In this document: one piece after another, positions 44,355 through 55,409 of the stretch
How positions within the stretch are numbered: position 1 is the first letter of the stretch
How the letters are laid out: each line of letters starts with the position of its first letter
Origin: Mobula hypostoma
Lineage: Eukaryota
DNA: 64,000 nucleotides
Assembly (NCBI RefSeq): GCF_963921235.1
Contig: NC_086097.1
Location: forward strand, 93,064,001 to 93,128,000
Direction of reading: 5' to 3'
Notes under the pieces: model-generated
What the model saw: the letters and a program-made list of their open reading frames with translations, nothing else
The model's database searches: none
What the model was told of the DNA's origin: nothing
Position numbers and translations under genes: made by a program

Positions 44355-45628
44355 TATATTACAAAATTATGAAAATAAAGGTAAACGAAGGGTCATCTGA
44401 AAGAATGGTGGAAGGAAGTGGTTCCTTTGGCTTCCCAGTACCTCACCTAACCATTGCAAGCACTGTGTTTGCATTATCTCATAATCCTTTGCATTTGAGA
44501 CACTTGCTGGACTGGAACAGGAATCCTGTCCCCACATTGTGACCCTTTCCGCATGTAAAACTGCTCCGTGACACACTCCCTCAGGTGTTGTCTCCTGGTG
44601 ACGATCTTCACTGCACATAACAGAGCAACACTGAAGGTCCTGACTGAAAGCAAATTGTTTCGGGACGACTGTTGGAGAGCCAGAAATTCATATTCCAGGG
44701 ACTGCTTGTCCCAAGGTTCTGGTCTGTTCAGCACTCTGCATAATGGCGGAACTTGTAAGTAAAATATCAGAGAGCCTGGCCGCTCCTGAAATATTTCTTT
44801 CCATTCAGAACAACCCCAGTTCAGTACAGCTGCATTTCCAACGCCGCTGTTTTCTGGACAAGATATTAATCCGAGGCACTCGGGTAGAGGGAAAGGGTGG
44901 CCTGAGAAAGGCTCTAACTATTGACTTAAAGGACAAGGAAGAGGTTTAGTGGAAGGAATGCCAGAGCTTTCTCTAATCATTTGAGGGTGCCAGTGGGGGT
45001 TGGGAATACAGACAGAAGCAGACTAGGTTAAGAGCAGACTATGATTTTGCTTCAATGTACACACACTTGGATCAGTGGGGAATAGTTTTTATTTTTTGTC
45101 CATTTTGCATCTCCAGTTGCACTCATAACTTCAAGAAAGGCAGTGAGGTGTTGAGAGTGAGAGAAAATAGGGGAAAGCCATGAGTGTGCAAGGGTAGTTA
45201 ATTGTCAGATTTCACTCTCTGTACTGGAGGCACCGAGACTGCAGATGCAGGAATCCAGAGCTAAAGCAAATCACTGGAAGAACTCGGCAAGTCAGGCAGC
45301 ATCTGTGGAGAGCAATGGTCAGTTGAAGTTTCAGGACAAGACCCTTCATCTGGACTGAAAGATAGGGCAGAGGTGGTCAGTATAAAATGGTGAATGGAAG
45401 GGCAAGTATTTGGTGGATCTGGGTGAGGGGAGAGATGGGGAGAAGGGGGGCGAGAACATCAGTCTGGATAGGTGGAGGCAACAACGGGCGGCATATGATT
45501 AAATCTGGTAGGAAAGGAAGGTAGAGCATGGAGCCAAACAAGGGAAATGGGTGAGTGGAGGAAGGGGTGGGTTGGATTGATAAGGAAAAGGGGGATATAA
45601 AGGATAGATTTCCATCAGAGTTCTTCTA

Positions 45629-45668
45629 GCAGTTCTGACGAAGGGTCTCGGCCTGAAACGTCGACTGC
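45629..45668 (+). ncRNA. Minimal type I hammerhead ribozyme motif (Penelope pLTR-derived)
   Basis: GCAGTT-CTGACGA-AGG GTCTCGG CCT-GAAAC-GTC^GACTGC: intact CUGANGA/GAAA core, 3-bp stem II, 6-bp stem I (one G:U), loopless palindromic ACGT stem III, GUC cleavage triplet. Confidence 0.75.
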
Positions 45669-46039
45669 GCCTCTTCCTATAGATGCTGCCTGGCCTGCTG
45701 CGTTCACCAGCAACTTTGATGTGTGTTGCTTGAATTTCCAGCATCTGCAGAATTCCTGTTGTTTTCTTCTAGCAGTTTGTTGTTTTGTTCTGTAATGGTT
45801 TCTTTCTGTGAGAAGTGCAGAATCCATTTCCCAACACTCTGCAGGTTCTGGTGAAGCCTTCCAGGGTATAGACCCAGTGATGGTGAAAGGACGGTGGCAT
45901 ATTTATAAGTGAGTGAATGGTGTGTCCAGCCCTTCCAGGTTAAACCAGCGCGGCAGGAATGGGGAGCTTGAAGGAGCTTTGGCAAGCAACAGCAGTACAG
46001 CCATGGTGCAGAGGTAGGAATGAATATTGGCACTTAGTC

Positions 46040-46610
46040 AGAATCATACAGCACTACAGCACAGAAACAGGCCCTTTGGCCCATCGAGTCTAGGCCAAAA
46101 TATGATTCTACCTAGTCCCATCGACCTGAACCATATCCTTCCATGTCCTTCTCATCCATGTACTTTTAAATGATTGAAATCTTTTCTTCTCAGCTGAAAT
46201 CAAATGACTCTTAAATACTGAAATCAAATTTGCATGCACTATTTCCACTAGCAGCTTGTGCCATGTTCTCACTTCCCTCTGAGTAAAGAGGTTCCCTCTC
46301 GTGTTCCCCTTAAATATTTCACCTTTCATTCTTAACCCAGGACCCTTAGTTCTAGTCTCACTCAACCTCAGTGGAAGAAGCCTGCTGGCATTCACCCTAT
46401 CTATACCCCTCATAATTATGTATACCTCTATCAAATCTCCCCTCATTCTGTGCTCCAGGGAATAAAGTCCTTTTCCCTATAACTCAGATCCTCAAGTCCT
46501 GGCAGTGTCCTAGCAGATTTTCTCTGTACTCGTTCAATATTATTGATCTCTTTCCTGGAGACAGGTGACCCATTAAAGTGCACGATACTCCAAATTAGGC
46601 CTTACGAACA
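46040..46610 (-). mobile_element. CR1 3' fragment
   Basis: ORF 46108-46446 MRGDLIEVYIIMRGIDRVN..; same subfamily as 8667-10638. Confidence 0.85.
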
Positions 46611-53813: not shown

Positions 53814-54401
53814 ACACACACAAAATGCTGGTGAACGCAGCAGGCCAGGCAGCATCTATAGGAAGAGGTACAGTCGACGTTTCGGGCCGAGACCCTTCAT
53901 CAGGACTAACTGAAAGGAGAGAGAGTAAGAGATTTGAGGGGGGAGGGAGAGATCAGAAATGATAGGAGAAGACAGGAGGGAGAAGGGATGAAGCTAAGAG
54001 CTGGAAAGTTGATTGGCAAAAGGGAGAGGATCATGGGACAGGAGGCCCAGGGAAAAAGAAAGGGGAAGGGGAGTGCCAGAGGAAGATGGAGAGCAAGCAA
54101 GGAGTAATTGTGAGAGGGACAGAGAGAGGAAAAAAAAAGGAGAAAAATAATAAATAAATAAATAAATAAATAACGGATGGGGTACGAGGGGGAGGTGGGG
54201 CATTAGCGGAAGTTAGAGAAGTCAATGTTCATGCCATCAGGTTGGAGGCTACGCAGACGGAATATAAGGTGTTGTTCCTCTAACCTGACTGTGGCTTCAT
54301 CTTTACAGTAGAGGAGGCCGTGGATAGACATGTCAGAATGGGAATGGGATGTGGAATTAAAATGTGTGGCCACTGGGAGATCCTGCTTTCTCTGGTGGAC
54401 A
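53814..54401 (-). mobile_element. Penelope-like 3' fragment + pLTR inserted into a V-SINE
   Basis: KQDLPVATHFNSTSHSHSDMSIHGLLYC..LEEQHLIFRL..QPDGMNIDFSNF; GAGTG at both junctions (53809-53813, 54402-54406); SINE halves at ~53695-53813 and ~54402-54540. Confidence 0.85.
53872..53907 (-). ncRNA. Minimal type I hammerhead ribozyme motif (Penelope pLTR)
   Basis: Minus strand reads AGTC-CTGATGA-A-GGG TCTCGG CCC-GAAAC-GTC^GACT. Confidence 0.75.
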
Positions 54402-55409
54402 GAGTGCTTCAGTTTCCTCCCACAGTCCAAGGACATCCTGGTTAGTAGGTTAATTGGCATTGTAAATTGTCCTGTGATTAGACTGGGGTTAATAGGTGGG
54501 CTGCTGGCCAGCACGGCTCATTGGGCCAGAGGGAACTCCTCCAAGAAAATAAACAAACGGTGTCCAAACTTGTTTTAATTACAGTTCGCAGCAAGGTTTG
54601 GATCCTGGCCCGCTTTTGCCTGATTCCGGGTGAAGGGGACCAGTCGAGGTACAGAAGGCCAAGCTCAGCACGGAGATAAACGTGACTCTGTGGGTAGAGC
54701 TCTCAGCTCCGACCCTGGCTGAAAGCAGCCCATCCACTTCAGGGCACACAGAAACTTCTGGCACAGCAGGAAGTCACAGTGCCTAGGGAAGTCCAGGAGA
54801 ACTCTTCAGTAGAGCAGTGGAAAGTGCTTCACCGTTAGAAAAGCTGGCTCTCAAATATGACATTGTCTTTAAGTCATACAGCACAGAGAAAGGCCCTTCA
54901 GTCCAACACACCCATACTGACCACCGTGCCTAATCAAGCCCATATCCTCCCAAACCTCCCATTCTGCCATCTGACTCTTTGCCTGTGAAATATGCCATGC
55001 CACTCTTTTGAAGAGTTAGGGGGCTTGGCAGGCAACTATTTCATTATTTAGAGGGACTCGCCATTCCTGAAATAACTGCCATATTTTTTTGAATTACAAC
55101 AGGGATACGAGGTCAGTGGTAAAGTAGGAGAGCTGACAGCCCTGTCTGTTCGCGGTGTACTCGAGTGTGGCGCCCCGCGGCCCTGCGAGGAGCTGTGTAA
55201 ACACAAGTTCCTTTGCAGGGGAACAACAACTCGTACAGCGAATGGGACACAAGCAAACGAGGAGCGGTGCTTAAATGAGCAGGAAGCCGCCGAGGGCTGG
55301 GCATTCCCCCTGTCCTAGGCTCTGCTGCCACCTGCTGGTCATCCTGCTCAGGAAATATGAGCAGCACCAGCGACTGAAAGGAGCCCAAGGAATCAGACTC
55401 AGGTTTATT

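Follow-up and report, generated by a model that had tools for sequence, protein, structure and literature searches.

A 5′-truncated Penelope-like insertion in Mobula hypostoma begins at a hammerhead core and adjoins target bases that can pair as helix I

The insertion described here is, with high probability, the 3′-terminal 129–130 bases of an abundant Penelope-like element (PLE) placed in a site that a related organism has without it; target-primed reverse transcription is likely to have stopped at the front edge of the element's hammerhead motif, and the completion of helix I by target DNA is likely to be a by-product of that event. The analysis covered a 64-kb stretch of DNA (the window), and its relevant features are given below in window coordinates. 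Nucleotides of the motif are given in hammerhead numbering.

45239..45365, − strand: an earlier copy of this pLTR end, now decayed, 71–81% identity; the empty-allele contig covers the part from 45321 on
45621..45634, + strand: 5′ copy of the target-site duplication (TSD), 14 bp; the last 6 nt (45629–45634) can form the 5′ strand of helix I (sequence, pairing, single copy in the empty allele)
45635..45641, + strand: hammerhead core C3–A9 (CUGACGA), with which the insert opens (genome count of the 34-nt core region: 28,830 exact copies)
45642..45654, + strand: extra unpaired A, then helix II of 4 bp with a 4-nt loop, closed by G·U at 10.1–11.1 (pairing, folding)
45655..45662, + strand: G12–A15.1, loopless palindromic stem III (ACGU), predicted cleavage after C17 at 45662 (from the min-HHR description, PMC4209133)
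45663..45668, + strand: 3′ strand of helix I, GACUGC (pairing, folding)
45669..45763, + strand: remainder of the pLTR end together with the optional 30–40 nt PLE tail (3′ ends of 48 copies; the same sequence enters the ORF in full unit L081)
45764..45777, + strand: second (3′) TSD copy, in which the first T fits the element end too (sequence, full-unit comparison, empty allele)
53814–54404, − strand: same-family copy in the window, 590 nt, 85% identity; at 53903 it carries an intact hammerhead of the G-C type

The 14-mer TTCTTCTAGCAGTT was present at 45621–45634 and 45764–45777, and no further copy was found on either strand of the 64-kb window. The two copies are separated by 129 nt, the first bases of which are CTGACGA at 45635, so that the insert does begin exactly at the catalytic motif, straight after the 5′ 14-mer, as an earlier note on this sequence had claimed. 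In a related organism, contigs from one sample (runs X5 and X6) cover 45321–45620 and then resume without a gap at 45764. Position 45620 is thus joined directly to 45764, with exactly 143 nt missing and one intact 14-mer kept. This single-copy site, found in the contigs of one sample, is the empty allele that the note had proposed to look for, and the 14-bp repeat that it described is a true target-site duplication. In being inserted with a TSD into an empty site, again judged from these contigs, the insert behaves as an EN+ Penelope-like element.

Because the related organism has the empty site, the insertion either postdates the divergence of the two lineages or is still polymorphic. Because the 14-mer is present in the empty allele, the 5′ strand of helix I, including its last T, is target DNA, and an element-derived origin of the 5′ repeat was ruled out. 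T45764 also matches the element's own 3′ end; the split may therefore be 129 + 14 or 130 + 13, and the reported insert length of 129 bp is borne out with the second division also possible. Contigs of the probable source sample span both junctions with 0 differences, and no empty-site joint was found among the listed matches of that sample; an unbroken contig crosses the 5′ junction, which fits a homozygous insertion without proving it. Runs X7 (98% likeness) and X10 left the flanks uncovered. The locus is a clean, dated insertion with a known empty site that shows exactly which bases are target-derived; as a single locus it has little weight, being one of tens of thousands of young copies.

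Two neighboring repeats are distinct from the insert. The antisense copy at 45239–45365 represents a separate, earlier insertion, because the empty-allele contig covers its part from 45321; this coverage and its likeness of 71–81% ruled it out as an inverted arm of the insert. About 275 nt downstream, 46053–46608 is a different, older interspersed repeat with 69–75% identity to other loci.

Sequence comparison showed that the insert is the last 129–130 nt of a young family of Penelope-like retrotransposons. Its 130 nt were identical in 19 fetched loci (a set biased to the top matches), which amount to 15 distinct loci besides this one; the insert shows no decay. In the full unit L081 the hammerhead cores lie at 2610 and 6124, 3,514 nt apart, and L082 is arranged likewise, each being a pLTR–ORF–pLTR partial tandem with the hammerhead in the pLTR. 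Between the two hammerheads (L081/L053) is an open frame of 1,055 codons with RT motifs, a CX4CxxC linker, and a GIY-YIG domain, in which the motifs YIDD and YIGET are found. The assignment of the insert to a Penelope pLTR is supported by the full unit, in which the same sequence continues into the ORF with RT and GIY-YIG. Pfam matches of this frame to RVT_1 (E = 4.5e-6) and GIY-YIG (E = 2.4e-4) were both below the curated cut-offs. Atlas look-alikes of the parent protein, at 0.95–0.97, carry HTH_animal, RVT_1, DUF8422, and GIY-YIG; no match was found among PDB sequences. A search of the phage collection likewise gave no match. In the parent translations the CX4CxxC linker precedes the GIY-YIG part. 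A CX2-5CxxC linker between RT and EN defines the Neptune/Nematis type of PLE (PMC8557442), and the linker suggests that the parent is of this type.

Just before the core, the parent subfamily (L081-type units) reads TTAGTC. The pLTR had been described as reading CAGTC at this point, which does not hold for the parent subfamily; CCAGTC was found in more diverged motifs. The native pre-core sequence (L081:2570–2609) resembles a 3′ splice site, with a pyrimidine tract, a branch-point-like motif, and AG at −8/−7 and −4/−3; in Drosophila Penelope, an intron has been reported to end at helix I (PMC4209133). The 3′ ends of 48 family copies fell at +83 to +103 (25 copies), +129 to +141 (22), and +45 (1), and the locus copy carries the longer of the two main ends. 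These two clusters match the optional 30–40 bp tail known in PLEs (PMC8557442) and the two RT start sites observed in vitro for an anole PLE (PMC11167929).

The motif itself has the parts of a hammerhead. GUC ends at 45662, and cleavage is predicted after this C17. GCAGTT (45629–45634, in the TSD) can pair with GACTGC (45663–45668) through five Watson-Crick pairs and a U·G wobble next to the core, which is long enough for a helix I of at least 4–5 bp. The placement of the 5′ strand of stem I within the TSD, paired with GACTGC, therefore stands, with six pairs, the innermost being U·G, and with the strand present in the empty allele. Helix II proper occupies 45643–45654, followed by GAAA at 45655–45658. 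We found C3–A9, G12–A15.1, U16.1, H17, an extra base after A9, and a palindromic 15.2–16.2, and the sequence fits the description of minimal type I hammerheads (min-HHRs) with a loopless palindromic stem III (PMC4209133), as had been proposed. The G10.1–C11.1 pair, highly conserved in min-HHRs (PMC4209133), is G·U at this locus. Among 37 motifs from a random sample the pair was G·U in 23, making this the commonest sampled form, and G-C in the other 14. Judging from the conservation, G·U would be expected to lower activity; the accessible part of PMC2837043 contains no measurement for G·U at 10.1–11.1. The prevalence of G·U hints that full ribozyme activity may be unneeded for amplification. 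Rfam hammerhead models gave no match at the gathering score in the window and none to E = 10 in 45200–46300; loopless motifs may fall outside these models.

A start at the core is not special to this copy, because many core-bearing copies break off there. Of the 28,830 exact cores, 19,150 retain 11 native upstream bases, a loss of 33.6%. Point mutation amounts to about 0.5% per site (at position −1) and so accounts for about 5 points of this loss; by this count, about 30% of core-bearing copies end 10 nt or less upstream of the core. Copies starting at the core, for which a genome search had been suggested, are thus common. The 5′ ends were located for the first 48 listed cores, which come from 42 loci in the first 4.7 Mb of one contig (C1) and include 5 loci that each contain both arms of what was probably a single insertion. 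Eighteen ends fell between 0 and −10 (exposure, 432 nt), 9 between −11 and −30 (exposure, 491 nt), and 13 between −31 and −884 (exposure, 11,138 nt), the last group consisting of 3 at −31 to −100, 0 at −101 to −300, and 10 at −301 to −884; 8 of the 48 ran past the reference. By junction type the same cores comprised 26 inverted, 8 TSD-flanked, 6 other, and 8 longer than the reference. The hotspot was weaker in a 794-kb random sample, a result that weighs against the preferred explanation: 3 of 30 core-covering matches (at least 88% identity) started at −10 to 0, the locus copy among them, and 12 further matches started at +2 to +76. Family copies as a whole form a length continuum from <100 nt to 3.5 kb.

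Cores preceded by a non-C base numbered 838. The first 70 listed were 35 inversions, 19 TSD-flanked starts, 12 point mutants, and 4 others, and scaling 19/70 to 838 gives about 230 TSD-flanked core starts. The commonest single junction among the 35 inversions is a fold-back, a near-perfect hairpin with a 2-nt spacer at the core start, which recurs in L107, L113, L114, L117, L122, L123, L125, L130, and others. Inversions in L255, L257, L260, L264, and L166 resume exactly at the 3′ strand of helix I, the pattern expected if cDNA self-primes through helix I complementarity.

Starts at the cleavage site were examined in the same way, and 75 of 13,407 matches followed a purine. The 30 of these that were examined comprised 14 point changes, 10 inversions, 4 others, and 2 TSD-flanked starts, both of which carry extra bases. 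TSD-type starts after a purine therefore amount to about 0.04% at the cleavage site vs. about 0.33% at the core (8/70, scaled). Because they are scarcer at the cleavage site than at the core, cleaved RNA was ruled out as the main template. Candidate causes of the hotspot are an RNA 5′ end and an imperfect hairpin, predicted in the parent by folding, with its loop at about −4 to 0. An incomplete search of main texts turned up no published account of 5′ ends piling up where the hammerhead begins; genomic copy ends are mapped in Fig. S2 of PMC11167929, which may be relevant to any earlier publication of the hotspot. These properties of the family, namely copies of uncleaved RNA, a pile-up of ends at the front edge of the ribozyme, scarcer ends at the cleavage site, and joining by CT(G) microhomology, bear on the open question of the role of the hammerhead in Penelope elements.

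The insertion can be explained by the following steps. The element's GIY-YIG endonuclease, assigned from the family ORF, would nick the target with a stagger of 13–14 nt, which is the length of the observed TSD. Copying would start at the tail end, at one of the two family 3′ ends, with priming presumed to resemble that of the anole element (PMC11167929). The template was uncleaved RNA, because the copy at this locus spans the cleavage site. The cDNA would then end, or be captured, at the 5′ edge of the hammerhead, the family-wide hotspot, and the target's free 3′ end would be joined to it, usually by 2–4 nt of microhomology as found in the family; at this locus the join would have used AGT plus a mismatch, or would have been blunt. 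The locus copy has neither an ORF nor an upstream pLTR, and therefore was probably dead on arrival and catalytically silent.

Joining by 2–4 nt of microhomology is, from the junctions examined, the norm of the family. In 14 of 19 TSD-flanked core starts the TSD overlaps the first 2–4 bases of the element (chance 7%; P = 5e-13); two of the other five have a one-base overlap, and three, including the locus copy, have no exact overlap. The locus copy agrees with native AGT at positions −4 through −2 and has T where the element has C at −1. A search for flanks with AGT plus a mismatch gave 48 matches in 46 loci, all of which were inspected. Among them, 14 were scored as TSD-flanked: 1 was a tandem trimer, 5 had the AGT outside the TSD, and 8, including the locus copy, had a target-derived AGT; 15 loci classed as "other" may hide imperfect TSDs. 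Target-derived AGT with the full 34-nt core was seen in 5 other copies vs. 3.2 expected (P = 0.22, not significant). The suggestion in the earlier note that microhomology guided integration thus holds for the family (14/19, at least 2 nt) and is only a possibility for this particular junction, which lacks exact overlap and where AGT plus a mismatch reaches only that P value.

There is a substantial possibility, though not quite an even one, that more extended annealing chose the junction: the target end would have paired over CAGTT and further upstream and then slipped by 4 nt, or would have paired over AGT with a terminal T·G mismatch. Restoration of helix I would then be a predictable outcome of 5′-end joining, and the proposal is a detail of the truncation model and compatible with it. 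Several observations point this way. With a shift of 4 nt, the TSD agrees with the native upstream sequence (−18 to −5) in 10 of its 14 bases, against a background of 0.7%, although this comparison was post hoc. The same 4-nt loss right before the core occurs within otherwise native pLTRs in 3 of 46 loci (L212, L275, and L284), where a 5-bp helix I remains. In L234 and L240, 6 of the 7 bases spanning the junction agree with the native sequence, and microhomology annealing has been reported at the 5′ junction of Penelope (PMC3846280). Weighing against extended annealing are the nonsignificant excess of target-derived AGT with a full core and the fact that the 4-nt-deleted copies differ from the insert at 3–5 of 80 positions, which ruled out a source element of that kind.

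Under the preferred model of truncation at the hammerhead edge, completion of helix I by target bases is likely a rare but accidental by-product. Among the 19 TSD-flanked core starts, helix I measured 0 bp in 8, 1 in 5, 2 in 4, 5 in L183, and 6 here, so that at least 5 bp were present in 2 of 19, the locus copy included. The native bases that were lost themselves make up the helix I strand, so a look-alike flank would restore helix I automatically, without selection. Of the 7 other TSD copies with target-derived AGT, three have T at −1, three have A, and one has G; a working helix is not favored, because A or G breaks the core-adjacent pair and T is no commoner than A. Against the by-product view stand the twin copy L226 elsewhere, whose 14-bp TSD ends in the same six bases (0.09 expected, P ~0.09), the weak 5-bp helix I of L183 (1 of 18 others, with a chance of ~0.5% each), the shifted 10/14 match, and the better predicted helix I.

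That last point emerged from folding predictions, in which the probability of helix I was 0.3–1.0 here (56–203 nt contexts) vs. 0–0.26 in the parent context, in which the core is tied up by a hairpin upstream of it. The predicted folds always paired core GACG with CGUC of the cleavage strand. The claim that insertion rebuilt a foldable ribozyme is therefore supported for helix I but not for the core, which is predicted to mispair with the cleavage strand. A hammerhead-shaped monomer had P = 1–4e-4, and 2e-10 with 400 nt of upstream sequence including the old antisense copy. For two RNAs, the double hammerhead was predicted at −20.1 vs. −39.9 kcal/mol for the best dimer (parent, −12.9 vs. −32.7), in models that ignore tertiary contacts of the core. 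In the double-hammerhead geometry, the TSD strand would contribute to cleavage of the partner RNA rather than of its own molecule.

Activity of the rebuilt hammerhead in read-through RNA of the host, whether as a homodimer or as an enzyme strand against other family RNAs, is very unlikely. Every core nucleotide is intact, helix I is predicted to form more readily than in the parent with its sequestering hairpin, and the predicted double-hammerhead shape is favored by 7 kcal/mol over that of the parent. However, the monomer shape is very rare in the predicted ensembles, the double hammerhead lies ~20 kcal/mol above the best dimer (in these models without core tertiary contacts), the 10.1–11.1 pair is G·U, and there is no nearby partner, since the window contains just one further intact core motif, which lies on the opposite strand. 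In addition, min-HHRs are described as having no activity as monomers and weak activity as dimers (PMC4209133), and in an anole PLE the ribozyme required the element's protein, while insertion in vitro could proceed without the ribozyme (PMC11167929). Ribozyme activity of the locus copy is doubtful on these predictions. Among the listed runs that contain the sequence, none is recorded as RNA. Runs X11 and X13 (guessed to be RNA) contained family sequence and no contig with the unique flank, a result neutral on transcription of the locus.

A broader proposal, slightly less probable again, is that the family, with thousands of copies truncated where the hammerhead begins, keeps yielding ribozymes whose helix I is completed by the host. 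The locus copy and L226 would outfold the parent, because truncation removes the hairpin that sequesters its core, and would cut RNAs in trans, the targets being family RNAs or host transcripts carrying copies. Should such copies prove capable of cutting in trans, insertion would give rise to new ribozymes within host transcripts. Least probable of all, and largely refuted, is the discrete, self-propagating, non-autonomous mini-retroelement (retrozyme- or SINE-like) with a fixed core start that the earlier note had favored: the ~230 TSD-flanked core starts and the non-autonomous PLE derivatives already described (PMC8557442; bioRxiv 2026.07.22.740005) would suit it, but long copies (L002–L011 and others) end in exactly the sequence of the insert, 5′ ends fall at varied positions from 0 to −30 and further upstream, each inspected TSD copy has its own flank, and the copy is solo rather than tandem, all as for a 5′-truncated copy in a length continuum. 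One tandem member of the family, L285 (G000:C91:48803343–48803933), is a head-to-tail trimer of 278-nt units that each start at the hammerhead core and join through short CTGA(C) homology inside the ORF; it is retrozyme-like and could bring cores close enough to dimerise.

Comparison with known systems places the insertion among the 5′-truncated insertions of EN+ PLEs (PMC8557442, PMC3846280, PMC11167929). These share with this family a frame with RT and C-terminal GIY-YIG, a pLTR–ORF–pLTR unit, heavy 5′ truncation, head-to-head inversions, short TSDs, two 3′ ends ~35 nt apart, and 5′-junction microhomology. They differ in that no pile-up of 5′ ends at the hammerhead front edge was found in the literature searched, and the anole PLE is a Poseidon element, whereas the linker here points to the Neptune/Nematis type. 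The metazoan min-HHRs (Cervera and De la Pena 2014, PMC4209133) have the same core, an extra base between 9 and 10.1, a palindromic 15.2–16.2, no loop 3, and a short helix I, and most of them are described as solo motifs from truncated PLEs, as here. Unlike them, this subfamily has G·U at 10.1–11.1 and a helix II of only 4 bp, and at this locus the 5′ strand of helix I is host DNA with a U·G wobble at 2.1–1.1. Non-LTR retrozymes (bioRxiv 10.64898/2026.07.22.740005) are likewise described as short, non-coding, and PLE-related with a type I hammerhead; they consist of tandem units with at least two complete hammerheads, whereas the insert studied here, identical in sequence to the end of the autonomous element, is a single TSD-flanked piece.
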